Below, one piece after another: positions 15,514 to 49,240 of a DNA stretch of 64,000 nucleotides. The first letter of the stretch is position 1; each line of letters begins with the position of its first letter. The DNA lies in the IMG/VR virus record IMGVR_UViG_3300036398_002324. One strand, written 5' to 3'. Below the pieces are notes generated by a model. That model was not told where the DNA came from. It was given only the letters and a program-made list of their open reading frames with translations, and made no database searches. A program made the position numbers and the translations under genes. The DNA comes from a virus.

Positions 15514-17202
15514 ATGGCATTTCAATTATCACCTGGAGTAAATGTATCAGAGATTGACCTGACTACAGTTATTCCTTCAGTGGGCACTTCTACAGGTGCT
15601 TTTGTAGGACCTTTTGCTTGGGGACCATGTGGTGAAGTTACAACTGTTTCCGATGAAGTTCGTTTAGTCGATTCATTTGGTAAACCAGATAGCACAAATT
15701 ATGAATACTGGTTCTCTGCTGCAAACTTTCTTGCATACGGAAATAATCTAAAAGTCGTTCGTGCATTCAATTCATCATCTACTTTGAATGCTACAGCAAA
15801 CGGTACTGGTTTGTTGATTAAAAATCAAAGCGATTATGAAGAAAATCATACAGGATATGCTGCAAATTCTTATAACGGTTTCGGCGCACGTTGGGCTGGT
15901 GCTTTAGGTAACTCATTAAGCGTTTCTATGGCTGATGCTGCATCATATTCAACTTGGGCATATAAAACTCAATTTACATCTGCACCAAGTAATTCAAGTT
16001 ATGTAGCAGCAAGAAATGGTTCGTTTGACGAACTTCATGTTGTTGTTGTAGACCAAGATGGATTGTTTAGTGGTACAGAAGGCACAGTTCTTGAAAAATA
16101 TTCATTTGTTTCGAAAGCATCTGACGCTAAAGATGACTCTGGAAATTCAAATTACTACAAGAATGTAATTCAATCTAAGTCAAAATATATTTGGTGGTTG
16201 TCACATCCAACACAAAATACTGGTGTAGGAACAGCATGGGGTTCATCAGCGAATGCATCTAGTTTTGCAAACACAACTGGTAATGTAACGTTCTCGTTGT
16301 CTGGTGGAGCAGATGGTACAGTTGATACTTCACAAATTACTACAAGCTGGGACCAATTCAAGAATGCAGAATCAGTAGACATTTCACTCTGTGTAACTGG
16401 CACAGGTAATTCTACAATTTCAAGTTATGTTATTGACAATATTGTAGGAACACGTAAAGATTGCGTTGCATTTGTTTCACCAACCAAAGCAAGTGTTGTG
16501 GACAATTCTGGTAATGAAGTTAGTGACATTACTACATTCCGTAATTCACTTACATCATCTTCATATGCAGTTCTAGATTCTGGTTACAAATATCAATACG
16601 ACAAATACAGTGATGTTTATCGTTGGGTACCATTAAACGGTGACATTGCTGGTCTGTGTGTAAGAACAGACCAAGAACGTGACCCATGGTTTTCACCTGG
16701 TGGTTTAAATCGTGGCGTTATCAAGAACGTTGTAAAACTTGCTTGGAATCCACTAAAATCAGAACGTGATTCATTGTATTCTGTTGGCGTAAATCCTGTT
16801 GTTTCTTTCCCAGGAGAAGGTACAGTTCTGTTCGGTGACAAAACATTACTGAGCAAGCCAAGTGCATTTGATCGTATCAATGTTCGTCGTTTATTCATCA
16901 CTCTTGAAAAAGCAATTTCACGTGCAGCACGTTTCTCGTTGTTTGAATTTAATGATCAATTCACACGCGCACAGTTTGTTGCTCTAGTTGAGCCATTCTT
17001 ACGTGACGTTCAAGGTCGTCGTGGTATCACAGACTATCGAGTTGTGTGTGACGATACAAACAACACTGGAGAAGTTATTGATCGTAATGAATTCGTTGGT
17101 GACATCTATATTAAACCAGCACGTTCTATCAACTTCATTCAATTGAACTTCGTAGCAGTTCGTACGGGAGTATCTTTCAATGAAGTCGTAGGTGCGGCAT
17201 AA
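15514..17202 (+). CDS. gp18: Tail sheath protein gp18
   Basis: QLSPGVNVSEIDLT; PWFSPGGLNRG; FDRINVRRLF; IKPARSINFIQLNF. Confidence 0.96.
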   Translation: MAFQLSPGVNVSEIDLTTVIPSVGTSTGAFVGPFAWGPCGEVTTVSDEVRLVDSFGKPDSTNYEYWFSAANFLAYGNNLKVVRAFNSSSTLNATANGTGLLIKNQSDYEENHTGYAANSYNGFGARWAGALGNSLSVSMADAASYSTWAYKTQFTSAPSNSSYVAARNGSFDELHVVVVDQDGLFSGTEGTVLEKYSFVSKASDAKDDSGNSNYYKNVIQSKSKYIWWLSHPTQNTGVGTAWGSSANASSFANTTGNVTFSLSGGADGTVDTSQITTSWDQFKNAESVDISLCVTGTGNSTISSYVIDNIVGTRKDCVAFVSPTKASVVDNSGNEVSDITTFRNSLTSSSYAVLDSGYKYQYDKYSDVYRWVPLNGDIAGLCVRTDQERDPWFSPGGLNRGVIKNVVKLAWNPLKSERDSLYSVGVNPVVSFPGEGTVLFGDKTLLSKPSAFDRINVRRLFITLEKAISRAARFSLFEFNDQFTRAQFVALVEPFLRDVQGRRGITDYRVVCDDTNNTGEVIDRNEFVGDIYIKPARSINFIQLNFVAVRTGVSFNEVVGAA

Positions 17203-17205
17203 ATA
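17198..17205 (+). promoter_or_regulatory. Late promoter (CATAAATA) for gp19
   Basis: Overlaps the gp18 stop; upstream of AGGAG RBS. Confidence 0.55.
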
Positions 17206-17227
17206 AGAGAGAAACAGGAGAAAATAA

Positions 17228-17773
17228 ATGGCATTTAACGTAAATCAATTCCGCTCTCAACTTCAAAGTGACGGCGCACGTCCTAATCTGTTTGAAGTGA
17301 GTATGCCGTTTCCTGCATTCTCATTACCAGGAAACGCACAAACAAAAATGACGTTCATGTGTAAAACAGCACAACTTCCAGGTTCAACTCTGGGCGTTGT
17401 GCCTGTTCAATACTTCGGTCGTGAATTAAAGTTCGTAGGTAATCGTACTTTTGCAGATTGGACAGTTACAATTATCAACGATGAAGACTTTGCAGTTCGT
17501 AATGCATTTGAACGTTGGATGAATGGCATTAATAGCCATAATCTTAATGTTCGTAATCCAATTGCTGGAACACCACTAGGATATACTGTTGATGGTGAAG
17601 TTACTCAGTTTGGAAAAGCAGGTAACTCAATTAAAAAATATAAATTTGTAGGTTTATTTCCAACAGATATCACTCCAATCGATGTTGATTGGGGCTCAAA
17701 TGATACTATTGAAGAATTTTCTGTAACGCTTACCTATCAGTGGTGGGAAGCAGTAGCAGACGGTGTGGTCTAA
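17228..17773 (+). CDS. gp19: Tail tube protein gp19
   Basis: GARPNLFEV; GRELKFVGNRTFADWTVTIINDEDF; IEEFSVT. Confidence 0.96.
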   Translation: MAFNVNQFRSQLQSDGARPNLFEVSMPFPAFSLPGNAQTKMTFMCKTAQLPGSTLGVVPVQYFGRELKFVGNRTFADWTVTIINDEDFAVRNAFERWMNGINSHNLNVRNPIAGTPLGYTVDGEVTQFGKAGNSIKKYKFVGLFPTDITPIDVDWGSNDTIEEFSVTLTYQWWEAVADGVV

Positions 17774-23147: not shown

Positions 23148-24491
23148 ATGTATTTGTCTGAAAATTTACAAAACAAATGGGATGGTGTTCTAAATCATCC
23201 AGACTTGCCAGCGATTGCTGACCCATATCGTAAGGCAGTTACAGCAGTTATCCTGGAAAATCAGGCTACTGAAATGATCAAAGAATCTGGTATGCTGCAA
23301 GAGACCGGTTCACCAACTAACTTTGCTGGTACAGGCGGTTTTGGTGGCGGTGCTGCTGCTGCAGGTCCAGTTGCTGGTTTCGATCCAATTCTTATCAGCT
23401 TAGTTCGTCGTTCATTACCTAATCTGATTGCGTATGACGTTTGCGGCGTTCAGCCAATGACAGGTCCTACAGGTCTGATTTTTGCAATGCGTACTAAGTA
23501 TGCATCACAAGGTGGTGGAGAAGCATTCTACAACGAAGCTAACACAGCATTCTCTGGTGCTAACGGCGCTATCGTTGCTTCTTCAATGACAATTGCTGGT
23601 AACACAACAGATTATCTGTTTACTGGTAACGCTGCTCCTACAGGCGCAATGACTACTGGTTCTGCTGAAGCATTAGGCGACGGTGCAGCTGGTAACACAT
23701 TCCAAGAAATGGCATTCTCAATTGAGAAAGTTACTGTTACAGCACGTACACGTGCATTGAAAGCAGAATACTCAATGGAACTTGCACAAGACTTGAAAGC
23801 AGTTCATGGTCTAGACGCAGAAACAGAATTGGCTAATATCCTTTCTGCTGAAATTCTTGCTGAAATCAACCGTGAAGTTATCCGTACAATCTACAAAGTT
23901 GCTAAACCAGGCTGTCAAGCTGGTACAACAACTCGTGGTGCATTCAACCTTGACACAGATTCAAACGGTCGTTGGATGGTTGAAAAGATTAAAGGTCTTG
24001 CATTCCAGATTGAACGTGAAGCAAACCAAATTGCTAAGACAACTCGTCGTGGTAAAGGTAACATCGTTATCTGTTCTTCAGACGTAGCTTCTGCTCTAGC
24101 GATGTCAGGTATTCTTGATTACAACTCAGCACTTGCTGGTCAAGTTAATCTAACAGTTGATGATACTGGTAATACTTTTGCTGGTACAATCTTCGGTCGT
24201 ATCAAAGTTTACATTGACCCATACTTCCCAACAGGCTCAACATCTGAGTTTGCGGTTGTAGGTTACAAGGGTACTAACGCATACGATGCTGGTATGTTCT
24301 ACTGCCCATACGTTCCTCTACAAATGGTTCGTGCAGTTGATACAGGTACATTCCAGCCAAAGATTGGCTTCAAGACTCGTTACGGTCTAGTTGCTAACCC
24401 ATTTGCTGAAGGTACTGACCAGGGTCTAGGTCGTTTGGATTCACAGTCAAACAACTACTACCGTGGTTTCCGTATTGCAAACTTGATGTAA
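23148..24491 (+). CDS. gp23: Major capsid protein gp23
   Basis: GVQPMTGPTGLIFAMR; RALKAEYSMELAQDLKAVHGLDAE; FQPKIGFKTRYG. Confidence 0.98.
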   Translation: MYLSENLQNKWDGVLNHPDLPAIADPYRKAVTAVILENQATEMIKESGMLQETGSPTNFAGTGGFGGGAAAAGPVAGFDPILISLVRRSLPNLIAYDVCGVQPMTGPTGLIFAMRTKYASQGGGEAFYNEANTAFSGANGAIVASSMTIAGNTTDYLFTGNAAPTGAMTTGSAEALGDGAAGNTFQEMAFSIEKVTVTARTRALKAEYSMELAQDLKAVHGLDAETELANILSAEILAEINREVIRTIYKVAKPGCQAGTTTRGAFNLDTDSNGRWMVEKIKGLAFQIEREANQIAKTTRRGKGNIVICSSDVASALAMSGILDYNSALAGQVNLTVDDTGNTFAGTIFGRIKVYIDPYFPTGSTSEFAVVGYKGTNAYDAGMFYCPYVPLQMVRAVDTGTFQPKIGFKTRYGLVANPFAEGTDQGLGRLDSQSNNYYRGFRIANLM

Positions 24492-24518: not shown

Positions 24519-24549
24519 AAAGAGGCTTCTTCGGGAGCCTCTTTTTTTT
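24519..24549 (+). terminator. Rho-independent terminator with UUCG loop after gp23
   Basis: AAAGAGGCTTC-TTCG-GGAGCCTCTTTTTTTT. Confidence 0.9.
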
Positions 24550-24552
24550 GTT

Positions 24553-24560
24553 TATAAATA
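24553..24560 (+). promoter_or_regulatory. Late promoter TATAAATA for gp3
   Basis: Exact consensus 5 nt before ATG 24566 (near-leaderless). Confidence 0.75.
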
Positions 24561-25136: not shown

Positions 25137-25571
25137 ATGAGCAAACTTGATGATGTATTACAGATGTGGGCAACTGATTCTATCATTGATAGAACTGAAC
25201 CTGGTAAAGCACTGATTGACATTCCAAAACTTCATTCGAAGTATTTAAACATTCTTTCTTCACATAGATTGTTAGTCAAAGAAGCCGAATTTCAATATAA
25301 CAAATGGCGTAAATTAAAGTGGGAATACTACACTGGCAAACTTGACGAAGAATTGTTGCATCATTATGGATGGCAACCATTTCCTTTTACACTCAAATCT
25401 GAAATCAATACATACTTAGAAGCAGACGAAGATATCAATAAGTATCTTGCTAGAAAACTATTACATGAAGAAATTGTGGAAGTATGCCAAGCAATCATAA
25501 AAGAACTAAACAACCGAACATGGGAGCTTCGGTCATTCATTGACTGGGAAAAGTTTATTCAAGGTGTTTGA
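25137..25571 (+). CDS. uvsY: Recombination mediator UvsY
   Basis: IPKLHSKYL; KWEYYTGK; IDWEKF. Confidence 0.9.
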   Translation: MSKLDDVLQMWATDSIIDRTEPGKALIDIPKLHSKYLNILSSHRLLVKEAEFQYNKWRKLKWEYYTGKLDEELLHHYGWQPFPFTLKSEINTYLEADEDINKYLARKLLHEEIVEVCQAIIKELNNRTWELRSFIDWEKFIQGV

Positions 25572-27045
25572 TTTAATTTTACGAAAACAGAACGAAGCGT
25601 TCATAAGAATTGATTGTGAGAAGAGTGTCGCTTACGAACTCTCTTCTTATTTTGAATTTTTTGTTCCTGGTTATCAGTTCATGCCAACATACAAGAATAA
25701 ATTGTGGGATGGAAAAGTTCGTCTTTTCGATTTGCGTTCACATACAATTTATTCTGGTCTGTTGCCGTACATTGAAAAGTTTTGCGCTGAAAGAGAATAT
25801 AAGTATGAGATTGACTCAGCAATCACTGCAACTGAGAATTTCTCAGCATTAGAAGCTAAAGAGTTTATAGACAGTCTTGAACTGCACAAAACCATTATAC
25901 AAGAAGGTGCAAGAGAATATCAAGTAAAAGCATTCATTTCTGCCGTTAGAAATAGAAGAATGTTGTTATTATCACCGACTGGTTCAGGTAAGTCCTTCAT
26001 TTTGTATCTCATTCTGAGATATGTTCAGCATAAAAAACACAAAAAAGGTTTGTTGATTGTTCCGACAACATCACTTGTTGAACAGATGTACTCCGATTTT
26101 GCATCTTACGGATACGATTCAGAGAAATATTGTCATCGTCAATATTCTGGTAAAGACAAGAACACAGACAAGTTTCTTACAATCACCACATGGCAATCAA
26201 TCTATAAAAATCCACCAGAATACTTTGAGCAGTTTGATTTTGTTTTTGGTGATGAAGCACACCAGTTCAAAGCAAAGTCTCTGACTACCATTATGTCTGG
26301 ATTAAAGAATGCATCTTACAGAATTGGATGTACAGGAACAATTGATGGTACACAAACACACAAACTTGTTCTTGAGGGATTGTTTGGACCAGTTTATCAA
26401 TCAACGACAACAGCTAAACTTATTGAAGATAAGATGTTAGCAGAATTTAAAATAAAATGTTTGATATTAAAATATTCTGAAGAAGTTTGTAAACAGTCCA
26501 GAGCATGGGACTATCAGAGTGAAATAAACTACATAGTTAGTAACAAAGCACGAAATGAATTTATTCGTAATCTTACACTATCACTAGAGGGCAATTCTCT
26601 TGTGCTATTTAATTTGGTTGAAAAACATGGCAAACAACTTCACAAACTCATTGAAGAGAAAGCTAGTAATAGGCATGTTTTTTTTGTGTATGGTGGAACA
26701 GATGTTCAAGTCCGTGAACAAGTTCGTGCCATTACCGAAAAAGAAAATAACGCCATCATCGTGGCTTCTTACGGCACTTTTTCTACCGGTATTAATATAC
26801 GTAATCTTCATAACGTTATTTTTGCCTCACCGTCTAAGTCGAGAGTTAGAAATTTACAATCAATTGGAAGAGGCTTGCGAATTGGAGACAACAAAAAAGA
26901 AGCGGTACTATTTGATATAGCAGATGATTTTCGCATAGGTAAACATGTTAATTTCACATTGAAACATTTTGCCGACCGTGTTAAAATATATGATGGAGAA
27001 AAGTTCAAATACAAATTCTACAACATAGAGGTCAAAAATGCATAA
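25564..27045 (+). CDS. uvsW: SF2 helicase UvsW
   Basis: SPTGSGKS, DEAH, QSIGRGLR; GTG start at 25564 likely. Confidence 0.93.
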   Translation: MFDLILRKQNEAFIRIDCEKSVAYELSSYFEFFVPGYQFMPTYKNKLWDGKVRLFDLRSHTIYSGLLPYIEKFCAEREYKYEIDSAITATENFSALEAKEFIDSLELHKTIIQEGAREYQVKAFISAVRNRRMLLLSPTGSGKSFILYLILRYVQHKKHKKGLLIVPTTSLVEQMYSDFASYGYDSEKYCHRQYSGKDKNTDKFLTITTWQSIYKNPPEYFEQFDFVFGDEAHQFKAKSLTTIMSGLKNASYRIGCTGTIDGTQTHKLVLEGLFGPVYQSTTTAKLIEDKMLAEFKIKCLILKYSEEVCKQSRAWDYQSEINYIVSNKARNEFIRNLTLSLEGNSLVLFNLVEKHGKQLHKLIEEKASNRHVFFVYGGTDVQVREQVRAITEKENNAIIVASYGTFSTGINIRNLHNVIFASPSKSRVRNLQSIGRGLRIGDNKKEAVLFDIADDFRIGKHVNFTLKHFADRVKIYDGEKFKYKFYNIEVKNA

Positions 27046-27454
27046 CGTAAAACTAATAAGAATGCAATCTGGTGAAGATATATTAGCTTCTATGTGTGAA
27101 GAAGAAAATTCCGATATGATTCAGTTGAATGAGCCCATGCGTTTAGTATTTCGAAGAATGCCAACTGGACAAACTGTAATGATGATGATGCCCTGGTTAC
27201 CGGTTGAACTTATCAAAGTTAATAGTGCAAATATATATTATACAGACATTGTTACGATTGTTGAACCTAGAGAAGAAATGATTAGGTATTATGATAAAGT
27301 GATTGAGAAATTATCAAAAGATATGGAAGAATCTGATAAGAAAATAAATGAATTATTAGAAGACCATGACGATAGTGATGAAGAAAATGAAGAAGAAGTA
27401 TACCAAGAAATTCTACAACACATAAATGAAATAAAAAATAAAAAGTTACATTAA
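27038..27454 (+). CDS. Conserved T4-like hypothetical protein (Sm-like fold, acidic tail)
   Basis: KLIRMQSGEDI...PW motif; usual position after uvsW. Confidence 0.6.
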   Translation: MHNVKLIRMQSGEDILASMCEEENSDMIQLNEPMRLVFRRMPTGQTVMMMMPWLPVELIKVNSANIYYTDIVTIVEPREEMIRYYDKVIEKLSKDMEESDKKINELLEDHDDSDEENEEEVYQEILQHINEIKNKKLH

Positions 27455-27468
27455 AGGATTAGTTTATT

Positions 27469-28986
27469 ATGTCAAAAGTGGTGACATTTGTTATACCAAG
27501 CAGTGCTGCACAAGCATATCAGGAACTCTCTAATAAGTATTCTGCTATTGAACCGCCAACATGGGCATTGTTACTTGCTAACGCTGTTCGTGTTGATGGA
27601 TATAATCCTTGTATTTTAGATTTTGATGCTGAACCTACAAGTGTTGAACAAGCAGCAGAGAAAATTGCGGATACAAAAACTGATATAGCAGTCTTTGTTC
27701 TTTATGGACAAAATCCAAACTCAGGCACCACGATGATGATTGGTGCATCAAAACTAGCAAAGCAACTTAAAGCATCACATCCATCAATCAAAACAGTATT
27801 CATCGGCTCACATGCTTCTGCATTGCCATATGATGTTATTGGTTTACCTTATGTTGATTTCGTATTCATCAATGAGGGTGTTTATGGTCTGCTAGATTTG
27901 CTGCAAACAAACTATGTTGATGAACTAGACAAAGTTCGTGGTCTGGTATATAAGAAACATGGCTTTGCTGCGACGGGTGCTCCTGGTGAGATTGTTCAAA
28001 CGAAAGATATGGACAGAGTTATGCCAGGTTATGCATGGGATTTGCTACCAAAAGATAACAACTTATTAGACAAATACAGAGCGCATTATTGGCATTCATA
28101 TTTCAAAGACGAAGGTCGTACACCATTTGCTGCAATCTCAACATCACTGGGTTGTTCATTTGGTTGCAACTTCTGTATGATTAATATCGTCAATAGAACA
28201 TCATATCAACAAGGCACAGTATCATCCGATACTCGTGGTATGCGTTTCTGGTCACCAGAATTAATGTTGAAAGAATTTGAATATCTATGGGAAAATGGTG
28301 TACGCACAGTTCGTTTGACTGATGAGATGTTTTTTCTAAACAAAAAATATTATGTTCCTATTCTGCAAGGTCTGGTTGACCGTGGAATGAAGTTTAATTT
28401 CTGGGCATATGCACGTGTAGATTCCGTTCGAAAAGACCAACTAGAATTGTTCAAAGAAGCTGGAGTAAATTGGCTTGCACTTGGTATCGAAGCAGGTAAT
28501 CCACAAGTTCGTTTAGAAATTGATAAAGGTCGATTCAAGCAAGTTGATATTCGTGAAGTTGTACAAGACATTAAAGATGCTGGTATCAATGTGTTGGGCA
28601 ATTACATGTTTGGTTTTCCAGAAGATACACAAGAGACAATGCAAGAAACTTTAGACCTTGCACTTGAGTTAAACTGTGAACATGCAAACTTCTATGCAGC
28701 AATGGCATTACCTGGTAGTCCACTTTATATGGAAGCAGTTAATAATAAATGGGAATTACCACAGACGTTCGATGAGTTCGCATTTCTATCATATGACTGT
28801 AAACCACTCAGAACAAAAGCACTAACTGGTGCTGAAGTATTGAAGTTTCGTGATGATGCTTGGCACAAATACTTTTCACATGGACCATTCTTGAATCTTG
28901 TTGAAAACAAATTTGGAATTGATTCACGTAAAAATATTGAAGAGATGTCCAAGATTAGATTGAAAAGGAAAATTCTAGGTGACTAA
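27469..28986 (+). CDS. Cobalamin-binding radical SAM enzyme
   Basis: N-terminal B12-binding-like domain (EPP.W...GSHASALP...GEG-like); CSFGCNFC; DEMF, YARVD, GIEAG, GFPEDT. Confidence 0.88.
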   Translation: MSKVVTFVIPSSAAQAYQELSNKYSAIEPPTWALLLANAVRVDGYNPCILDFDAEPTSVEQAAEKIADTKTDIAVFVLYGQNPNSGTTMMIGASKLAKQLKASHPSIKTVFIGSHASALPYDVIGLPYVDFVFINEGVYGLLDLLQTNYVDELDKVRGLVYKKHGFAATGAPGEIVQTKDMDRVMPGYAWDLLPKDNNLLDKYRAHYWHSYFKDEGRTPFAAISTSLGCSFGCNFCMINIVNRTSYQQGTVSSDTRGMRFWSPELMLKEFEYLWENGVRTVRLTDEMFFLNKKYYVPILQGLVDRGMKFNFWAYARVDSVRKDQLELFKEAGVNWLALGIEAGNPQVRLEIDKGRFKQVDIREVVQDIKDAGINVLGNYMFGFPEDTQETMQETLDLALELNCEHANFYAAMALPGSPLYMEAVNNKWELPQTFDEFAFLSYDCKPLRTKALTGAEVLKFRDDAWHKYFSHGPFLNLVENKFGIDSRKNIEEMSKIRLKRKILGD

Positions 28987-29578
28987 ACAAGAACTTATCG
29001 CATTCGAAGATAAGATTGCTGATCATTTCAACAATGGCAGAATTCGTGCGCCAATTCATCTGTACTATGGCAATGAGAATGAAATGATAAAAATCTTCAA
29101 AAACATTCGGTCAATAGATTGGGTGTTTTGTTCATGGCGTTCACATTATCAATGTCTGTTGAAAGGTGTGCCGCCAGATGTTTTAGAAAAAGATATTTTG
29201 GAAGGCAAGTCAATCTCACTTTGTTATCCACAATACAACATATACTCATCAGCAATTGTTGGTGGCAATATTCCTATTGCAGTAGGAACTGCGATGGCAA
29301 TGAAACGTAAAAAGATTGACACGAAGGTGTATTGCTTTGTTGGTGACATGACATCAGAATCTGGCATCTTCATGGAAAACTTCAAGTATTCTATTCAACA
29401 TGAACTGCCTATCAAATTTATTGTTGAAGATAATGGCAAATCTGTTTGTACTGATACAAATAAAACTTGGGGTGTATCAGAATCATCATATAAGAATTGT
29501 GAACACGAATCCATTTATTATTATGAATATGAAACAAAATATCCACATGCTGGTGCGGGAATGAGGGTACAATTTTGA
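28979..29578 (+). CDS. TPP-dependent E1-alpha-like subunit (short)
   Basis: HLYYGNE, WRSH, SAIVGGNIPIAVG, TPP motif GDM...EDN. Confidence 0.85.
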   Translation: MTKQELIAFEDKIADHFNNGRIRAPIHLYYGNENEMIKIFKNIRSIDWVFCSWRSHYQCLLKGVPPDVLEKDILEGKSISLCYPQYNIYSSAIVGGNIPIAVGTAMAMKRKKIDTKVYCFVGDMTSESGIFMENFKYSIQHELPIKFIVEDNGKSVCTDTNKTWGVSESSYKNCEHESIYYYEYETKYPHAGAGMRVQF

Positions 29579-30105
29579 AATACTTTGACGAACTAAAACG
29601 TGCAATGAACATGCTTGCTGGTGATCCAAGAGTTATCTTTATGGGTCAAGCAGTAGAGTATGCTGGTACAGCAATGTCTAACACACTAAAAGATGTTCCT
29701 AAAGAACAATTATTAGAAATGCCTGTGTTTGAAGACACACAAATGGGCATGACATTGGGTTTAGCACTTGCTGGTTATATTCCTGTGAGCATTTATCCAC
29801 GTTGGAATTTTCTAGTGTGTGCAACAAATCAGTTAGTCAATCACGTAGATAAAATTACGATGATGTCCGATTACAAGCCAAGAATTATCATAAGAACTGG
29901 TATTGGTTCTGAAAGACCTTTACATCCACAACATCAACATGTCGGTGATTATACAGATGCCTATAGACTTCTTTGCCCAAATACTGATATAATTAAGTTA
30001 GAAGAACCAAGACATGTCTACGATGCATACTGCACAGCATATCTGAGAAGAGATGGAAAATCTACCATATTGGTTGAGTATGGTGATTATTATAATGAAA
30101 AATGA
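29575..30105 (+). CDS. TPP-dependent E1-beta/transketolase pyrimidine-binding subunit (no C-terminal domain)
   Basis: VIFMGQ, EMPVFED..MG...GLAL.G, NQLVN, HPQHQH. Confidence 0.82.
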   Translation: MKYFDELKRAMNMLAGDPRVIFMGQAVEYAGTAMSNTLKDVPKEQLLEMPVFEDTQMGMTLGLALAGYIPVSIYPRWNFLVCATNQLVNHVDKITMMSDYKPRIIIRTGIGSERPLHPQHQHVGDYTDAYRLLCPNTDIIKLEEPRHVYDAYCTAYLRRDGKSTILVEYGDYYNEK

Positions 30106-31085
30106 TCATATCTAAAACACCGTATCGTTTATCTTTATTTGGAGGTGGCACAGATTATCCAGCATGGTATGAAAAACATCCATCTAGAGTAATCTCTGCT
30201 GCAATGGCTCATTATTGCTATATAAGTTTAAAGAAGTTACCGCCTTATTTTGAACATGCTAATCGGATTATCTATTCAAAGATAGAAACTGTTGATGACA
30301 TATCTGAGATAGAACATCCTTCAGTAAGGGAGTGTTTAAAGTATTATGATATATCTAATGGTATTTCTATTAGCCACGACGGCGACCTTCCTGCTCGTTC
30401 TGGCATTGGATCATCTTCTGCATTTACTGTTGGACTGGTAAATGCCATCACAACTTATCTAGGCAAATCAAATCATGCATATGACCTTGCTAGAGCAGCA
30501 ATAGATATTGAACAGAATCGAATTGGTGAATCTGTCGGTGTACAAGATCAGATTGCAGCCGCTTATGGTGGTTTAAATGTTATTGAACTTTCAAAAGACA
30601 AAATAAAAGTTTTATCTTTAGATGTATCTTTTGAATACGAAAACAATTTAGAAAAGCATATTATGTTAGGCTTTTCTGGTATTGATAGATTTTCTGATGT
30701 TCATGCTAAACAACAAGTTGAAAATATTAAATCAGGCAAATCGGAAAAATATTTGGATGCTATATCCAGAGTATCAAATTGTGCATATGATTTAATGATT
30801 GATGAACAACCGATGAAAGAGTTAGGCGACCTTCTTGTTGAACAGTGGTACTACAAAAGAGAACTAACAAATGATGTAACGAGTGAGTATATAGATACAA
30901 TATATAACAAAGCAATAAAAGCTGGTGCATATGGTGGTAAATTGATGGGTGCTGGTGGTGGTGGTTTCTTTATGTTTCTTGCTCCGCCTGATGCACATGA
31001 AAAAATTAAACTAGCAATACCTGAAATCAACGTGTGGGTGCCATTTAAATTTGACTATAGTGGCAGCACAATTATCATGGAGTGA
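30102..31085 (+). CDS. GHMP sugar kinase, HddA (heptose-7-phosphate kinase)-like
   Basis: SKTPYRLSLFGGGTD, DLPARSGIGSSSA, G.QDQ, GKLMGAGGGGF. Confidence 0.85.
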   Translation: MIISKTPYRLSLFGGGTDYPAWYEKHPSRVISAAMAHYCYISLKKLPPYFEHANRIIYSKIETVDDISEIEHPSVRECLKYYDISNGISISHDGDLPARSGIGSSSAFTVGLVNAITTYLGKSNHAYDLARAAIDIEQNRIGESVGVQDQIAAAYGGLNVIELSKDKIKVLSLDVSFEYENNLEKHIMLGFSGIDRFSDVHAKQQVENIKSGKSEKYLDAISRVSNCAYDLMIDEQPMKELGDLLVEQWYYKRELTNDVTSEYIDTIYNKAIKAGAYGGKLMGAGGGGFFMFLAPPDAHEKIKLAIPEINVWVPFKFDYSGSTIIME

Positions 31086-32263
31086 CGATGAAGTATCCTT
31101 TAATGTCTGATAATATTACAAGAGAAGATTTAGATTTGGTAATAGAACATCTCAAAAAAGATAATCCAAAACTTACGAATGGACCAGAGTGTCGTGCTTT
31201 TGAAGAAGCATGGTCTAAATGGTTGGGTGTAAAGTATTCAGTCTTTGTCAATTCCGGTGCTTCTGCAAATCTATTGTCAATGACAATGTTGAAGATTAAA
31301 CATCCAGAAGGTGGTGAAGTGATTGTGCCGCCATTTACATGGGTATCTGATATCGCTTCTATTCTTCAATGCGGATTCACTCCAGTATTTGTTGACATCG
31401 ACTTAGACACTCTTGGTATGAATGAGGATGGCATACTAAATGCTATCACAGATAAGACACGTGCTGTCTTTATAACTTACGCTCAAGGCTTCGACTGCTT
31501 ATCTGACAGAGTATTAGAAGTTCTTCGTCATCGTAACATTCCTTTGATTGAAGATGTGTGTGAATCGCATGGTGCAACACATAATCAAAAGCTTTTGGGT
31601 AGCTTTGGTTGGATGTCAAACTTCTCATTTTATTTTGCACACCACATGTCAACGATTGAAGGTGGTATGGTTTGTACAAATGATGAAGAAGTTTATCACA
31701 CAGTTCGTATGCTCCGTTCACACGGTATGGTACGTGAATGCGGTAGTTCAAAGATGTCTGAAAAATATAAAGCAGAAAATCCAGAATTAAATCCAGATTT
31801 CATTTTCGCATATCCAGCATACAACATGCGTAACAATGAAATTGGCGGTATACTTGGTCAAAATCAGTTGAAATATCTGGATGAAAATGTTAAACTTAGA
31901 AATAAAAATCTATTTCACTTCTTATCAAAGCTAGACCAGAAAAAGTATAAGGTAGATTTTAGATTGATAGGATGTAGTAACTATGCGTTTAACATAGTGC
32001 TACAGCATGACTATTGTACAGAATATTTTGTAAATCGTTTGATGGGTAAAATGCGTGATGAAGGAATTGAGTTTCGTCGTGGCTCTGCTGGTGGTGGAAA
32101 TCAATTGAGACAACCATATTTGAAAAATATTGTACCAGAAAATCATTATAGGAACTTTCCGAATACTGACCACATGCATTTTTATTCGTTCTACATTGGA
32201 AATTATCCAACACTAAAAGAATCAGCAATCAATGAAATCGTAAACATTTTAAATAGGGTATAA
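31082..32263 (+). CDS. DegT/DnrJ-family PLP enzyme, ColD-like NDP-4-keto-6-deoxysugar 3-dehydratase
   Basis: VNSGASANL, EDVCESHG, FSFYFAHHMSTIEGG with His at the usual Schiff-base Lys position. Confidence 0.82.
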   Translation: MTMKYPLMSDNITREDLDLVIEHLKKDNPKLTNGPECRAFEEAWSKWLGVKYSVFVNSGASANLLSMTMLKIKHPEGGEVIVPPFTWVSDIASILQCGFTPVFVDIDLDTLGMNEDGILNAITDKTRAVFITYAQGFDCLSDRVLEVLRHRNIPLIEDVCESHGATHNQKLLGSFGWMSNFSFYFAHHMSTIEGGMVCTNDEEVYHTVRMLRSHGMVRECGSSKMSEKYKAENPELNPDFIFAYPAYNMRNNEIGGILGQNQLKYLDENVKLRNKNLFHFLSKLDQKKYKVDFRLIGCSNYAFNIVLQHDYCTEYFVNRLMGKMRDEGIEFRRGSAGGGNQLRQPYLKNIVPENHYRNFPNTDHMHFYSFYIGNYPTLKESAINEIVNILNRV

Positions 32264-32264
32264 T

Positions 32265-33206
32265 ATGGGACAGTGGCGAGTATTAGTAACTGGTGGAGCT
32301 GGTTACATTGGTTGTATTCTAGTAGAATACTTATTGCAAATAGGATGTAAAGTTACTGTATTGGATAACTTTATGTTTCGTCAAAGTGGATTGAATCATC
32401 TTTGTGAAAATAAAGACTTGACCATCGTGAATGGTGATATTCGTAATCCAGCACATATGGCACAACTGCTGAAAGAAGCAGATATTATTATTCCTCTTGC
32501 TGCACTTGTTGGCGCACCATTGTGTAACAAAGATGTTGTTGGTGCAGACACAACAAATAAAGATGCAATGTTCTGGATGCTAAAGAATGTATCAAATGAA
32601 CAGCGCATCATTATGCCTACAACAAATTCTGCTTATGGTACCGGTGATGAAAATAACTTCTGTACAGAAGATTCTCCACTACGTCCTATTTCAAAGTATG
32701 CGGTCGATAAAGTTGCAGTAGAAAAAGAATTAATGCAGCGTGAAAATTCAATCAGCTATCGTCTTGCTACAGTATTCGGTATGTCACCGCGTATGCGTAC
32801 AGATTTGTTGGTTAATGACTTGACATATCGTGCAGTGAATGATGGTTATACTATCATCTTTGAGGGTCACTTCAAACGTAATTATGTCCATGTGCGTGAT
32901 GTATGTGAAGCATTCTTACACGCAATTCATCAGTTTGAAAATATGCGTGGTAATATTTACAACGTAGGTCTTTCTTCAGCAAACGTTTCTAAATTAGAGT
33001 TGTGTGAAATTATTAAGAAACATATTCCAAGCTTTACAATCGTAGAAGGCGATATCAAGAAAGACCCTGACCAACGTAACTATATCGTTTCAAATGAAAA
33101 GTTAGAAGCAACTGGATGGATGCCATATCATACACTTGATGATGGTATTGTTGAACTTATTAAGGGATACACATACATCAAGAACAATATTCATGGTAAT
33201 GTATAA
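32265..33206 (+). CDS. NAD-dependent sugar epimerase/reductase (extended SDR)
   Basis: VTGGAGYIG, YAVDK (YxxxK), RLATVFG. Confidence 0.88.
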   Translation: MGQWRVLVTGGAGYIGCILVEYLLQIGCKVTVLDNFMFRQSGLNHLCENKDLTIVNGDIRNPAHMAQLLKEADIIIPLAALVGAPLCNKDVVGADTTNKDAMFWMLKNVSNEQRIIMPTTNSAYGTGDENNFCTEDSPLRPISKYAVDKVAVEKELMQRENSISYRLATVFGMSPRMRTDLLVNDLTYRAVNDGYTIIFEGHFKRNYVHVRDVCEAFLHAIHQFENMRGNIYNVGLSSANVSKLELCEIIKKHIPSFTIVEGDIKKDPDQRNYIVSNEKLEATGWMPYHTLDDGIVELIKGYTYIKNNIHGNV

Positions 33207-33742
33207 TGGCAACCCATTACGTAAACAACGCTGATTTTTTAGCAGCATTAATAAAATATAAAGAAGATTGCGTCATATCGGAGAGAGATGGAACACCAGA
33301 ACCAAAAGTTCCAAATTACATTGGCGAATGTTTTCTAAAAATTGCGGAACATCTATCAAGAAAACCAAACTTCATATCATATACTTATCGTGATGAGATG
33401 ATATCTGATGGTGTTGAAAATTGTTTGATGTACTTCCGCAATTTTGACCCGGCAAAATCAACAAATCCATTTGCTTATTTTACACAGATAATATATTATG
33501 CATTCTTACGTAGAATTATGCGTGAGAAGAAACAGTTATATGTTAAGTATAAAGCAACACAACAATTTGGATTACTTGATGAGGGAGAGATGTTTGAAGA
33601 TGAAGATGGAAACATGAGGCAATTTGAATTGTATGATAACATCTCAGAATTTATCCATAATTTTGAAGAGAATAAGAAAAAGAAAAGCGTAAAGAAAGCA
33701 ACTGGACTTGAACAATTTTTGGATGATGAGACTGAAAAATGA
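33206..33742 (+). CDS. gp55: Late sigma factor gp55
   Basis: HYVNN, YIGECFLKIA.HLS.KPNF, NPFAYFTQIIYYAFLRRI. Confidence 0.95.
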   Translation: MATHYVNNADFLAALIKYKEDCVISERDGTPEPKVPNYIGECFLKIAEHLSRKPNFISYTYRDEMISDGVENCLMYFRNFDPAKSTNPFAYFTQIIYYAFLRRIMREKKQLYVKYKATQQFGLLDEGEMFEDEDGNMRQFELYDNISEFIHNFEENKKKKSVKKATGLEQFLDDETEK

Positions 33743-34179
33743 AAGTAGGATTTAATTGCAGTACATTTGATTTGTTTCATGCAGGTCATGTAACGATGTT
33801 GAGAGAAGAAAAAAGATATTGTGACTATCTTATTGTTGCAATTCAAGTTGACCCAACCGTTGATAGACCAGACACAAAAAATAAACCCATAATGTCCATT
33901 TATGAACGTTATGTCTGTGTCTCAGCATGTAAATATGTTGATGAAGTGATTGTTTATCACACCGAAGAAGACTTGTTGAATCTTTTGAAGACACAGCACA
34001 TCGATATCCGTTTTCTTGGTGATGAGTATAAAACAAAAGACTTCACTGGAAAACAGTGGTGTTTAGATCATGGCATAGAATTACATTATCATAATAGAGA
34101 ACACCCATACAGCAGTTCTTCATTACGAAAACGCATTTACGAAGCTGAACTAGCTAAACTGGAAAATAAATCTAAATGA
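33739..34179 (+). CDS. Cytidylyltransferase (TagD-like)
   Basis: FDLFHAGHV (HxGH) and R.H.YSSSSLR motifs. Confidence 0.85.
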   Translation: MKVGFNCSTFDLFHAGHVTMLREEKRYCDYLIVAIQVDPTVDRPDTKNKPIMSIYERYVCVSACKYVDEVIVYHTEEDLLNLLKTQHIDIRFLGDEYKTKDFTGKQWCLDHGIELHYHNREHPYSSSSLRKRIYEAELAKLENKSK

Positions 34180-36952: not shown

Positions 36953-37527
36953 GTGAAATTCTAACAATTGATACATCTGCTGGTCTACAAACAGCCGAAA
37001 GAATTGATCCTCTTCGTGTATACGGAGAAGATTTTTCTATGCTTGGTCAAAAAATACCAGAATATACTGGTACGTTTCCAGCACCAGCATTAGTTACACT
37101 GAGTAAACGATTGAAGATGACGATGAAGCTTTATGCTGGTCTTGGTCTTTCAGCAAATCAGTGTGGTGTTGCTGAAAGAATGTTTGTAATTGGAACAGAA
37201 GAGTTTCAACTAGTATGCATCAATCCAAAAGTTACCGCAGCTGGTCCATTTGTAAAAGATAAAGAAGGTTGTCTTTCTTTTCCTGCATTGTTTTTGAATG
37301 TTGACCGTCCATCTTGGATTGAAGCAGAGTTTTTGGATGAAAACGGTGAAACAAAACAAGTGAGATTAGAAGGTCTTTCTGCACGTTGTTTCCTACATGA
37401 ACTTGACCACCTTGATGGAATAAGATATACTGAGTATGTTAAACCACTTGCATTAAAAATGGCAAGACAGAAAGCTAATAAGATGGTAAAGAAAATTATT
37501 AGAGGAAAGAAAAATGAAAAAGTCTGA
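36949..37527 (+). CDS. def: Peptide deformylase
   Basis: GLGLSANQ, EGCLS, HELDH motifs. Confidence 0.92.
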   Translation: MSEILTIDTSAGLQTAERIDPLRVYGEDFSMLGQKIPEYTGTFPAPALVTLSKRLKMTMKLYAGLGLSANQCGVAERMFVIGTEEFQLVCINPKVTAAGPFVKDKEGCLSFPALFLNVDRPSWIEAEFLDENGETKQVRLEGLSARCFLHELDHLDGIRYTEYVKPLALKMARQKANKMVKKIIRGKKNEKV

Positions 37528-37864
37528 GATTCAAGAAACTGGCACATATGAAAATTGTATGGAGTTGCTTACTGATGAATATCAACCACCAACTCTAAAT
37601 CGTTTTTTTGGTGAGAGTGATGATGACAATGAAGGCGTTGATGTTCAAAATGCCGAATGGCAAAAGCATTGGGTTGGTATGCCAATGTTTGAACAGAATG
37701 ATAAGAAAACATATAAAACAATCTATCTTCATTTCCGAAACAAAGAAGATTATGAAGCGTTTGCAAAATTGGTGGACCAAAATCTTACAGAGAAAACAAA
37801 ATCAATCTGGTATCCAAAACTTGAAAGAGATGAAAACTCTTTGAAGAGATGGATTGAGGCATGA
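37514..37864 (+). CDS. Small hypothetical protein of the type found beside phage DNA glycosyltransferases
   Basis: W.GMP.F.Q...HF....D...F..L..Q.LT.KTKSIWYP; internal TLNRFF. Confidence 0.6.
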   Translation: MKKSEIQETGTYENCMELLTDEYQPPTLNRFFGESDDDNEGVDVQNAEWQKHWVGMPMFEQNDKKTYKTIYLHFRNKEDYEAFAKLVDQNLTEKTKSIWYPKLERDENSLKRWIEA

Positions 37865-38661
37865 GTCAAGTAGATTTTCTTAAAGAAAAGCCTCAAGTAT
37901 TGTTTGAGTATTTTCTCAAAGATTATGGCAGTTTGTTTTCTATAGATGCCGAAGAGTGTCGAGCAATTCGAAAGACTGATAAAATCTTTCAAGAATTGTC
38001 GAACAAATGGTATGATGATTTAGCAAATACAGATACCGGAAACATCTATGAGGTTTACAATCATGACTACTATTTTATTGATGTGTTCAATTGTTTTGTC
38101 TCATATAGTCGAGACTACGTTAAAAGAATTTTAAAGTCATCACACTTTGGAGAACTGAAAGAACCTAAAGTTATTGTTGATATTGGTTGTGGTATAAGTT
38201 ACAGCACAAGTTTATTGAAACAGTTATTTCCTGAAGCCAAAGTTTATGCAATCAATCTAAGAGATACTAAACAATGGAAGTTCTGTGAAATAATGGCAGA
38301 AAGAATGAACTTCAATCTAGTTGGCTCAATTACTGAGATTGGCGAACCTGTTGATATATTATTTGCTTCAGAATACTTTGAACACATTTATAATCCGATT
38401 GAACACGTTGACGATATTATTGGTACTCTAAAACCGAAACATATGATAATTGCAAACTCATTCAACACATGGGGGATGGGACACTTTACACAATATGATG
38501 TTTATGGTACAATGGTGAGTCAAGAAAAAATAAGCAAGATGTTTAATCAGCATTTGAAAAGAAGACACTATGATAACATCAAATGTGGAATATGGAATAA
38601 CAAACCTTTGATATGGAAAAGAAATGACGAATCCGACACATCCAGTTTATATCGTTTCTAA
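37861..38661 (+). CDS. Class I SAM-dependent methyltransferase
   Basis: IVDIGCG motif I; FASEYFEH. Confidence 0.75.
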   Translation: MSQVDFLKEKPQVLFEYFLKDYGSLFSIDAEECRAIRKTDKIFQELSNKWYDDLANTDTGNIYEVYNHDYYFIDVFNCFVSYSRDYVKRILKSSHFGELKEPKVIVDIGCGISYSTSLLKQLFPEAKVYAINLRDTKQWKFCEIMAERMNFNLVGSITEIGEPVDILFASEYFEHIYNPIEHVDDIIGTLKPKHMIIANSFNTWGMGHFTQYDVYGTMVSQEKISKMFNQHLKRRHYDNIKCGIWNNKPLIWKRNDESDTSSLYRF

Positions 38662-39520
38662 GGGTCGTTCTGATACAATGATTACGTCAAAATCATTGTC
38701 CAGAATGAAAGTACCTCATTATATTGTGATTGAACCACAAGATGAAGAAGCGTATGATAAAGCATTAGATAAATTTAATATTCGTGATTATGTCACGTTG
38801 ATTGTTGCACCATTCAGTAATCATGGTGATGGCCCTGGTCGTGCAAGAAACTTTGCATGGGATCATTCTATTTCTATTGGTGCAGATAAACATTGGGTAC
38901 TTGATGATAATATTTCTGATTTCTATAGACTGCATCAAAACTATCGTATCCGTGTAGAGTCTGGTGTTATCTTCAAAGCAGCAGAAGATTTTGTTGACCG
39001 ATTTGAGAATGTACCAATCTCTGGTTTTCAGTATCGATTCTTTATTGCACCAAATCAAAGTTATCCACCTTATGTAAAGAATACTCGAATCTATTCTACA
39101 CTGTTGATAGATAACAATTGTAAACATCGTTGGCGTGGTCGTTACAATGAAGACACTGATATCTGTCTGCGTGTTTTGAAAGATGGTGATTGTACTATTC
39201 AGTTCAATGCATTCTTGCAAGGTAAAGCAGCAACACAAACTGTTAAGGGTGGTAACACTGAAGAGTTTTATCACAAAGAAGGTATTGAAAAGAATGTTTG
39301 GATTGATGGTGTGAATGCTGAAGGTACGAGAAACAAATCTGAGATGCTGGTAAGAATGCATCCAGATGTTGCACGAATGGTCTGGCGATACAAACGCTGG
39401 CATCATTACGTAGACTATTCACCATTCAAGAAGAATGAACTGCGTTACAAAAAAGACATCATTTTACCAAAAGAACCAAACGAATATGGTATGAAACTTG
39501 TAACGAATTTCAAAGCTTGA
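38624..39520 (+). CDS. TET-associated/GREB1-like GT-A glycosyltransferase (putative DNA-base modifying)
   Basis: PVYIVSKGR, ARNFAWDH, HWVLDDNI, RGRYNEDTD, GGNT, RWHHYVDY. Confidence 0.7.
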   Translation: MTNPTHPVYIVSKGRSDTMITSKSLSRMKVPHYIVIEPQDEEAYDKALDKFNIRDYVTLIVAPFSNHGDGPGRARNFAWDHSISIGADKHWVLDDNISDFYRLHQNYRIRVESGVIFKAAEDFVDRFENVPISGFQYRFFIAPNQSYPPYVKNTRIYSTLLIDNNCKHRWRGRYNEDTDICLRVLKDGDCTIQFNAFLQGKAATQTVKGGNTEEFYHKEGIEKNVWIDGVNAEGTRNKSEMLVRMHPDVARMVWRYKRWHHYVDYSPFKKNELRYKKDIILPKEPNEYGMKLVTNFKA

Positions 39521-48388: not shown

Positions 48389-49240
48389 ATGAAATCTATT
48401 TTGACGTTGAGTCACTTTCACAGTGACTATCCTTTTAACTTTCATTCTTCTTGGATGAAAGTATCTCATGCTGGTGATGTTGCATTTCAAAATCCTCAGT
48501 TCGAACAATATTCAATCAACACATCATTAGCAGAAGACCGCATTCAGAAATATCAAAAGTATTATCCTGACGTTTCTGAAAAGAATTTTTTGAAAGCAAT
48601 GGGACAACAAGCTACCGAATATTGGCTTTGGAAAAATTGTAATGCAGACTACATTGGCTGCACAACCTACCGTCGCTATCTGTTAATAGAAGGCGCACAG
48701 CCAGAAGATGTAGACACCGCAAAGATTGTTTATCCAACAGACCCAAATCATATTAATTTTCTTTCTTCCGACATTCAGAAAGAAAAAGCACTTGATATTC
48801 TGGACAGTTATGATATAATAACAAATACACGTTCGATTATACCCTGGTCAGTTGAACGACAATATTTGGCATCTGAGCCACAAGAATATTGGGATTTGTT
48901 TATAGAAGGAATTCTAGAATTATTTCCAGAGTATAAGAAATCGATTGATTGGTTTCAAGGTAACCATGTAAACTATGAGACAACTTACATCATGCGTAAA
49001 GATTATTTCAGAAAATACGCAAGTGAATACTTTGCAATAATGGAATATATTTGGCAGAAAACTGACAACACGTATCCGACACAAGAATATTTGATTCAGA
49101 ACAATAAAACGTTAGGATGGTATCATCATCAAGGAAGTCCATGGCGTTATCCTGGATTTTTAGGCGAAAGATTCTTTCCTTTCTTTGTTGCGGCTAATGA
49201 AATGAAAGCACACTATGTCCCTTTGGTTTTGTTTACTTGA
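48389..49240 (+). CDS. DUF4422-like putative glycosyltransferase
   Basis: YWLWKN..ADYIG...YRRY; YIMRK..F..Y; GFLGERF. Confidence 0.6.
   Translation: MKSILTLSHFHSDYPFNFHSSWMKVSHAGDVAFQNPQFEQYSINTSLAEDRIQKYQKYYPDVSEKNFLKAMGQQATEYWLWKNCNADYIGCTTYRRYLLIEGAQPEDVDTAKIVYPTDPNHINFLSSDIQKEKALDILDSYDIITNTRSIIPWSVERQYLASEPQEYWDLFIEGILELFPEYKKSIDWFQGNHVNYETTYIMRKDYFRKYASEYFAIMEYIWQKTDNTYPTQEYLIQNNKTLGWYHHQGSPWRYPGFLGERFFPFFVAANEMKAHYVPLVLFT

Follow-up and report, generated by a model that had tools for sequence, protein, structure and literature searches.

A six-gene cassette at the orf138/gp55 junction of an uncultured T4-like phage and its possible role in making a branched 3-deoxy-heptose

Which sugar is made by a block of six enzyme genes set between uvsW and gp55 in a T4-like phage, and what does that sugar finally decorate? 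The block lies at positions 27469-33206 of a 64,000-nt stretch of the IMG/VR virus record IMGVR_UViG_3300036398_002324 (the window). The DNA comes from an uncultured T4-like myovirus. The explanation that we favor, with a confidence a little above even, is that the block is an accessory island captured from bacteria, that its enzymes make a branched 3-deoxy-heptose, and that a GT111-type glycosyltransferase encoded about 15 kb away transfers the product.

All six open reading frames (ORFs) are on the + strand. The first encodes a B12-binding radical S-adenosylmethionine (SAM) enzyme (27469..28986, 505 aa). It is followed by the two parts of a minimal thiamine diphosphate (ThDP) enzyme, an E1-alpha-like ThDP-binding (PP) subunit (28979..29578, 199 aa) and an E1-beta-like pyrimidine-binding (PYR) subunit without a C-terminal domain (29575..30105, 176 aa). 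Then come a HddA-like GHMP sugar kinase (30102..31085, 327 aa), a DegT-fold protein of the ColD type, predicted to be a pyridoxamine phosphate (PMP)-dependent nucleoside diphosphate (NDP)-4-keto-sugar 3-dehydratase (31082..32263, 393 aa), and an extended short-chain dehydrogenase/reductase (SDR), probably a GDP-heptose C4-dehydrogenase of the Cj1427 type (32265..33206, 313 aa). The cassette is compact and intron-free. The successive junctions are -8, -4, -4, -4 and +1 nt, and the stop codon of the SDR gene shares its A with the start codon of gp55 in TAATG. The original prediction had described this block, its tight packing, its coupling to gp55 and the enzyme families. The junctions and the Pfam, NCBIfam and PDB matches bear out all of these points.

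The SDR aligns with PDB entries 6VO6 and 6VO8 over residues 5-311 of 313 with about 60% identity (E 4e-103). The next best structures are at 1e-19 (ordinary epimerases; 4,6-dehydratases at 1e-19 or weaker). The depositors gave 6VO6 the generic name 'putative sugar-nucleotide epimerase/dehydratase'; we take it to be the GDP-heptose C4-dehydrogenase Cj1427, and the phage SDR is probably an enzyme of that type. Cj1427 oxidizes GDP-heptose in a ping-pong reaction in which the tightly bound NAD(H) is recycled by α-ketoglutarate, and Raushel's group combined it with the C3-dehydratase of Campylobacter jejuni HS:5 to obtain GDP-D-glycero-3-deoxy-4-keto-heptose in vitro (PMC10680097). The cassette holds this same pair of enzyme types, an SDR and a ColD-like protein, plus the HddA-like kinase.

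The DegT protein is closest to ColD structures (PDB 2GMS, E 8e-56). The first His of its FAHHMST motif aligns with a ColD residue that is His in the wild type (2GMS, YSHH) and, in two variant ColD entries, Asn (3B8X, YSNH) or Lys (2R0T, YSKH); the aligned position is that of the Schiff-base Lys of DegT aminotransferases. The His is kept in 58 bacterial DegT homologues of the loci that we fetched, and 11 further, more distant DegT genes in these loci carry Lys. By this replacement of Lys by His the protein would be a 3-dehydratase of the ColD/E1 type, in agreement with what had been predicted. The kinase contains the GHMP N and C domains in Pfam, and its best NCBIfam family is HddA (NF049969). 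Its PDB matches are 3K85 (2e-34), 4N3O (1e-30) and WcbL 4USM (1e-27), and HddA and WcbL are its best structural relatives. We call it HddA-like rather than HddA, because it does not reach the equivalog cut-off (144 bits against 600), and it is probably an anomeric kinase for heptose 7-phosphate. Since the SDR is close to a C4-dehydrogenase structure and the sampled bacterial modules described below carry HddC and GmhA, GDP-heptose is the most likely scaffold, and a 3-deoxy sugar rather than a 3,6-dideoxyhexose the most likely product. With a Cj1427-type pair and an HddA-like kinase, no 4,6-dehydratase would be needed. The 4,6-dehydratase that had been listed as missing therefore leaves no gap, given an SDR about 60% identical to 6VO6.

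The ThDP enzyme is unusually small in both parts. PF00676 (E1_dh) covers residues 5-163 of the 199-aa protein but only profile positions 5-172 of 300, so that the protein matches just the ThDP-binding half of E1α. Its GD...DNG ThDP motif is present in an alignment to BCKDH E1-alpha. PF02779 (Transket_pyr) spans residues 13-168 of the 176-aa protein, in which Pfam finds no Transketolase_C domain (PF02780), and in an alignment with E1-beta structures its cofactor-activating Glu falls on theirs (MPVFEDTQMG versus TPLNEGGILG). The NCBIfam equivalogs for 2-oxoacid E1 enzymes are not reached (84 bits where the cut-off is 394, and 38 bits where it is 321). Because of the truncated E1_dh domain, the lack of Transketolase_C and these low scores, the pair is, as judged from its domains, a ThDP enzyme that is not the E1 of a dehydrogenase complex. 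It also lacks the TPP_enzyme_N/M/C architecture of YerE and is E1-like. Fused E1a+E1b homologues are found in cyanophages P-TIM68 and S-SM2.

What this pair does is suggested by what replaces it. In relatives, this slot, with the dehydrogenase and the dehydratase unchanged next to it, is occupied interchangeably by the minimal E1αβ pair, by a split transketolase or by an acetolactate synthase (ALS)-like enzyme of 619 aa (contig L190), three ThDP classes that are mutually unrelated or very distant. E1-type pairs have been assigned a sugar-branching role in antibiotic sugars. YerE-type ThDP enzymes branch 4-keto-3-deoxy sugars, and YerE itself adds a pyruvate-derived C2 branch to CDP-4-keto-3,6-dideoxyglucose (PMC9306805). 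Because three ThDP classes fill one slot, and the family of YerE is represented among them, we consider that the ThDP step is probably a carboligation onto the C4 ketone, so the carbon branch that had been proposed remains probable. The ALS-like occupant supports the view that the window's pair may work like YerE, by analogy and not by membership of its family. Alternatively, the ThDP enzyme could be an upstream transketolase that supplies sedoheptulose 7-phosphate or another ketose phosphate, leaving the product as an unbranched 3-deoxy-heptose. The slot does hold a bona fide split transketolase in one variant, and in P-TIM68 and S-SM2 the fused homologue lies beside a kinase, nucleotidyltransferases and a phosphoheptose isomerase. 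We nevertheless regard this as unlikely: the ALS-like family of another variant is not known for sedoheptulose phosphate synthesis, the minimal E1αβ pair has no transketolase C domain and matches best to 2-oxoacid E1 enzymes, and cells already make sedoheptulose 7-phosphate.

The radical SAM protein matches PF04055 (E 4e-21) and PF02310 (E 3e-9), both above the cut-offs. It has the architecture of a class B (B12-binding) enzyme, with an N-terminal B12-binding domain and a CxxxCxxC core whose cysteines C229, C233 and C236 are invariant among 26 relatives. It reaches no NCBIfam equivalog cut-off. When the family profile is compared with the PDB, AprD4 is the best match (1e-27), followed by the uncharacterized entry 9CCB (3e-22); TsrM (4e-16), OxsB (6e-16), TokK (2e-13) and CysS are lower. 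AprD4 is a diol dehydratase, TsrM, TokK and CysS are methylases, and OxsB contracts a ring. The C-methylation that had been predicted is therefore only one possibility, since the best solved relative is AprD4; an AprD4-like dehydration and a rearrangement are the others. The gene travels with the kinase in bacteria and in one phage variant, which hints that the action of the enzyme on the heptose may not depend on deoxygenation at C3 or on branching. Many relatives (P0123-P0125, P0130, P0132 and others) have lengths of 640-940 aa, and their match to the query is split into two stretches, with the break near residue 230, close to the CxxxCxxC motif. These long forms look like proteins with large insertions, possibly inteins.

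Relatives of the radical SAM protein number in the thousands, with 358 cluster representatives below 1e-30. We scanned one genome per bacterial species with a nine-sequence radical SAM alignment, and this returned 80 bacterial loci. Their radical SAM proteins are 45-58% identical to the window's copy, and across the gene set identity to the phage proteins is 45-70%. Among the hosts are Nitrospira, methanotrophs, Verrucomicrobiota, Planctomycetota, Omnitrophota, Burkholderiales, Pelagibacteraceae, Chloroflexota and Actinomycetota. The partner genes stand in varying order; within 10 kb of the radical SAM gene, the ColD-like partner is found in 66 of the 80 loci, the GHMP kinase in 65, the SDR in 57, and minimal E1a and E1b in 52 and 48; a split transketolase takes the place of E1a/E1b in 15. 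These counts are lower bounds, because many loci are cut by contig ends. A nucleotidyltransferase is the seventh recurrent gene (47/80), and the one tested scores best as HddC (1.8e-48). The protein tested from an adjacent SIS gene, a type present in 12/80 loci, scores as GmhA (1.6e-51). Nitrospira loci add an Fcl-type reductase. Both loci that we sampled, from Methylomicrobium and Nitrospira, hold glycosyltransferases, and the Nitrospira locus also holds Wzm/Wzt with the Wzt C-domain. The recurrent genes of the bacterial loci do not include a 4,6-dehydratase, and no GT111 homologue lies within 10 kb in these loci. Since the homologues recur as a set, and the sampled loci hold HddC, GmhA, glycosyltransferases and Wzm/Wzt, the module is, judged by gene content, a widespread sugar module of bacterial surface polysaccharides, and the phage holds six of its genes.

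In the phages, the module occupies a fixed address. A scan of IMG/VR found 160 contigs that encode a relative of the radical SAM protein, and the best 80 of the 160 were examined. In all of these the block lies between orf138 (27038..27454, + strand), a gene conserved after uvsW, and gp55 (33206..33742, + strand), and the gene order is kept. Across the same best 80 contigs the cassette proteins are 52-98% identical and orf138 43-82%. The block is not a chance assembly, because its order is conserved and its identity exceeds that of the neighboring orf138. orf138 adjoins uvsW in relatives with the cassette and in relatives without it, and a search anchored on uvsW found equally close relatives in which orf138 stands directly beside gp55. 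Examples are L179, whose gp23 is 94% identical, and the complete 172-kb genome G026. Comparison of synteny with close relatives lacking the block thus upholds its description as an insert. The orf138/gp55 junction is a hot spot, which is empty, or holds a variant of the cassette, or holds another sugar cassette. The other cassettes (L181:10907-14738, L329:3122-6953, L186:3325-6918) include an insert in which a GMD-type 4,6-dehydratase is accompanied by a 2-oxoglutarate-Fe(II) oxygenase and a TylC3-like sugar C-methyltransferase, and an insert with a Lys-type DegT aminotransferase and an SDR. More distant relatives with the cassette have additional genes around gp55, for a YunG-like protein and an FkbM-type methyltransferase (L068:15700-16155 and 16985-17614).

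Five variants of the cassette are distinguished. Variant A, that of the window, has the minimal E1αβ pair. Variant B (L031) has a split transketolase of 258 + 305 aa in the ThDP slot. Variant C (L209) has larger E1α/β proteins and genes for a cupin, a HAD phosphatase and DJ-1. Variant D (L190) has the ALS-like 619-aa ThDP enzyme and a methyltransferase, and variant E (L328) is reduced to radical SAM, DJ-1 and kinase genes. In the radical SAM tree, variants A and B form one clade, and C, D and E form a second one beside Omnitrophota and Planctomycetota; the two phage clades therefore indicate at least two acquisitions by phages. The nearest radical SAM relative outside the viral collection, at 58%, is on a 7-kb contig (L087) of the Pelagibacteraceae single-cell assembly AG-359-J06. 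There, the radical SAM gene is followed by E1a and E1b, and it branches as sister to the phage clade. The contig may stem from a phage that was present in a SAR11 cell, or the gene may be the host's own.

A candidate transferase was found by comparing the downstream gene content of contigs with and without the cassette. It is encoded at 48389..49240 on the + strand, between an hsp20-like gene and o162, about 15 kb from the cassette. The protein matches PF14393 (DUF4422) with 72 bits against a cut-off of 25. Its AlphaFold2 (AF2) model has a predicted local distance difference test score (pLDDT) of 90, and the best Foldseek match of the model is WbbM (6U4B; E 3.9e-14, TM 0.69). With a DUF4422 domain and a predicted WbbM-like fold, it is classed as GT111-type. 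Across the 23 contigs that cover both sites, the cassette and the DUF4422 gene are both present in 15 (the window, G001, G002, G008, G011, G013-G016, G018, G030, G037, G040, G041 and, with variant E, G035) and both absent in eight (G006, G007, G026-G029, G032, G033), and none is discordant. On a core-gene tree of 18 of the 23, the joint state changes at least five times. The link is suggestive, and from its family the protein is a candidate transferase for the product of the cassette. WbbM, an O-antigen galactofuranosyltransferase, is the sole characterized member of the DUF4422 family (PMC12269835). A clamp-binding-like tail, which is seen on the phage's polymerase (gp43), gp55, Mom and a nuclease, is absent from the GT111 protein. 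The WbbM background, the absence of this tail and the polysaccharide context in bacteria tilt the acceptor toward a glycan or a protein over DNA.

Taken together, these results suggest the following pathway. The sequences show the enzyme families, their conservation as a single module and the co-variation of the genes; what we infer is the substrate, the sequence of reactions, the nature of the branch and of the radical SAM chemistry, and the acceptor. The HddA-like kinase would phosphorylate C1 of D-glycero-D-manno-heptose 7-phosphate, with the isomerase, the 7-phosphatase and the guanylyltransferase coming from the host or from elsewhere in the phage; supply by the host is probable. The SDR would then oxidize C4 of GDP-heptose, like Cj1427, and the ColD-like enzyme would strip the 3-hydroxyl to give GDP-3-deoxy-4-keto-heptose. 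Next, the minimal ThDP pair would attach a short branch, acyl or hydroxyalkyl, at the C4 ketone in the manner of YerE and E1-like sugar-branching enzymes, and the B12-radical SAM enzyme would carry out one more radical step, a C-methylation, a dehydration or a rearrangement. Finally, the GT111-type protein would probably transfer this product, or an earlier radical-SAM-modified heptose, to a glycan or protein more likely than to DNA.

Several points weigh against this explanation. A guanylyltransferase, GmhA and GmhB are not in the cassette, and the window offers only a distant NTP_transferase at its end, which starts at 63295, runs off the window and is unrelated to the HddC-like genes of bacteria. 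The kinase is far below the HddA equivalog cut-off, and the identity of 6VO6 with Cj1427 is our presumption, for which the deposit offers just a generic name. Of the contrasts behind the co-variation, just two lie on well-supported branches, and a sign test cannot reach significance; we call the link only suggestive. Variant E keeps the radical SAM, kinase and GT111 genes without the SDR, ColD-like and ThDP genes, so the transferase may not need a branched product. Literature searches also found no published description of the module.

The cassette sits among replication and recombination genes, and it could instead supply the donor for hypermodification of phage DNA, which the original prediction favored together with host-surface remodeling. 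The window does encode a Mom-type enzyme and a TAGT glycosyltransferase (38624-39520; PF20691, E 1e-43) that might serve as the transferase, if not another DNA glycosyltransferase, and TAGT was found only in cassette-bearing contigs (the window and G010). We consider this quite unlikely, and nothing in our results supports DNA as the target. TAGT is not an obligatory partner, because it is absent from the cassette-bearing relatives G001 and G002, whose syntenic regions were read through. The transferase that does co-vary is GT111-type, known only from O-antigen synthesis, and has no clamp-binding-like tail; the bacterial homologues lie in polysaccharide loci; and the window showed neither a hydroxymethylase nor a TET-type gene. 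TAGT belongs to a trio with a small ORF and a methyltransferase (37514-39520), which is a variable element, 92% identical in G010. The trio is also absent from G006-G009, and among ten further contigs it is present only in G010. A second candidate that we set aside is a 271-aa Anp1-like protein (43839-44654), since its gene belongs to the core in relatives with and without the cassette. It shows a weak match to Anp1 (mannosyltransferase-type), lies just before gp45, and is 80-93% identical in all relatives checked. Its homologues at 43-54% identity are in phages of Stenotrophomonas, Caulobacter, Sinorhizobium and Rhizobium, and phage records from Synechococcus and Pelagibacter also gave matches; this looks like a core gene that has gone unannotated. 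A broader statement, which we hold to be doubtful, is that phage and module-sharing bacteria make an undescribed sugar, a ThDP-branched, radical-SAM-modified 3-deoxy-heptose, which GT111 puts on virion proteins or phage DNA. If true, phages would be decorating themselves in a new way, as opposed to remodeling the host envelope.

The product could also resemble yersiniose, as a 3,6-dideoxyhexose with a C-methyl group and a branch at C4; it would derive from a CDP-, GDP- or ADP-hexose, and the gene for the 4,6-dehydratase would lie elsewhere. His-type DegT enzymes classically use NDP-4-keto-6-deoxyhexoses, ColD is the best structural match of the phage protein, and one of the other inserts at this site in relatives holds both a sugar C-methyltransferase and a GMD-type 4,6-dehydratase. 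That ThDP enzymes branch such sugars is established (PMC9306805). There is, in our judgment, only a small chance that this holds for the cassette: its SDR is about 60% identical to 6VO6, with 4,6-dehydratases at only 1e-17 or weaker, its kinase is HddA-like, the sampled bacterial versions have HddC and GmhA and not hexose-1-phosphate enzymes, and a 4,6-dehydratase is not among their recurrent genes. A metabolic weapon or decoy that drains or converts host heptose precursors, crippling lipopolysaccharide (LPS) or capsule or blunting defense with no transfer at all, would suit a cassette that contains no glycosyltransferase or nucleotidyltransferase and is dispensable in close relatives, but is very improbable, as six enzymes ending in elaborate tailoring exceed the needs of a drain, a glycosyltransferase co-varies with them, and the sampled bacterial loci put the module beside glycosyltransferases and exporters. 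Overall, the original prediction of a deoxygenated, ThDP-branched sugar encoded on an insert stands in outline. In place of its 3,6-dideoxy form, a 3-deoxy sugar derived from GDP-heptose is more likely, and a DNA target finds no support.

The surrounding genes follow a T4-like order. After gp23 (23148-24491) come a tail-tube-like gene, uvsY, uvsW (25540-27045) and orf138. The assignment of gp55, the gene of the late sigma factor, rests on DNA matches to annotated cyanophage gp55 genes. Downstream of gp55 is a small cytidylyltransferase-like gene (33739..34179, + strand), closest to RfaE domain II and TagD, then gp47, gp46 and a peptide deformylase gene. The cytidylyltransferase-like protein matches PF01467 (E 5e-15) and, below the cut-off, TIGR02199 (E 2.5e-20), and it resembles heptose-1-phosphate adenylyltransferase domains. 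We rejected it as a member of the cassette: most relatives with the cassette are without it, and L179, G026 and G006 encode it but have no cassette. At the end of the window (61061-64000) a second sugar-type cluster contains a 280-aa protein with a weak GT_PLOD match, a methyltransferase, a DUF7796 protein and the NTP_transferase. In the relative G001 (L084:4857-11247) the next genes of the cluster encode an APH-type kinase, a cyclase of the sugar phosphate cyclase type that resembles dehydroquinate synthase, and a short-chain dehydrogenase, and by its gene content it looks like a route to a nucleotide-activated cyclitol. The DNA polymerase of the window is about 51% identical to those of cultured cyanomyoviruses, and no near-identical record was found among cultured phages. 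Matches to the cassette among cultured phages are distant (radical SAM in Streptomyces phage SF3; E1a in P-TIM68 and S-SM2).

The cassette had also been placed in a pre-late operon, and such timing is not readable from the sequence. A strong terminator hairpin 3' of gp23 is followed by a T4-type late-promoter motif, TATAAATA, at 24553 (region 24519-24560), which heads a tightly packed array running through the cassette to the deformylase gene. We draw no timing from a scan for sigma-70-type sites, because they are no more frequent than in shuffled sequence.

One module thus appears to bring four cofactor chemistries, those of NAD, PMP, ThDP and B12/radical SAM, to bear on one sugar. It spans Nitrospira, methanotrophs, Verrucomicrobiota, Planctomycetota, Omnitrophota, relatives of SAR11 and an entire clade of T4-like phages. 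The pathway consists of known kinds of enzymes in a combination for which we found no published characterization. The phage variants swap the ThDP enzyme or drop half the pathway, and these natural variants, with the compact, intron-free phage versions, are a convenient entry for reconstituting the chemistry. The hot spot and the co-varying GT111 gene provide a testable pair of pathway and transferase for asking what lytic aquatic phages glycosylate during infection.

Among known systems, the capsular GDP-heptose pathways of C. jejuni share with the cassette an HddA-type kinase, a Cj1427-like SDR and a ColD-type 3-dehydratase. They have no ThDP or B12-radical SAM enzyme and end with epimerases and C4-reductases. 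Compared with the C. jejuni set of GmhA, HddA, GmhB and HddC, the phage cassette is without GmhA, GmhB and HddC, and also without an epimerase or a separate reductase. The routes to yersiniose, erwiniose and caryophyllose resemble the proposed one in passing through a 3-deoxy-4-keto sugar nucleotide and then ThDP carboligation at C4. They run from an E1/ColD-type 3-dehydratase to YerE-type branching and the YerF reductase, and variant D of a phage relative likewise has an ALS-like, YerE-family enzyme in the ThDP slot, where the window has the minimal E1αβ pair. Unlike the proposed pathway, they start from CDP-glucose through a 4,6-dehydratase, give 3,6-dideoxyhexose cores and include no radical SAM step. 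AviB1/AviB2 of avilamycin and the aldgarose and paulomycin pairs are also two-subunit ThDP enzymes of the E1α/β type in NDP-sugar clusters, where their presumed role is to attach a C2 branch to a keto sugar. Their subunits are of normal E1 size, whereas those of the window are reduced to 199 and 176 aa and lack the β C-domain; pairs of this minimal type are found in Gram-negative polysaccharide loci and in phages. The GT111-type protein shares its DUF4422 domain and fold with the domain at the N terminus of WbbM from Klebsiella pneumoniae O2a. WbbM differs in having a second, GT8 domain and in transferring galactofuranose from UDP-Galf during O-antigen polymerization. The sugar and 'LPS' islands of T4-like cyanophages and pelagimyophages (such as P-TIM68, S-SM2; PMC7029224) likewise place accessory nucleotide-sugar genes in hypervariable regions of related myoviruses, and those of the cyanophages hold a fused homologue of the minimal ThDP enzyme. 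In contrast to these, the island of the window lies inside the conserved uvsW-gp55 core, not in the hypervariable region of the tail fibers, and has a six-gene counterpart in bacteria.

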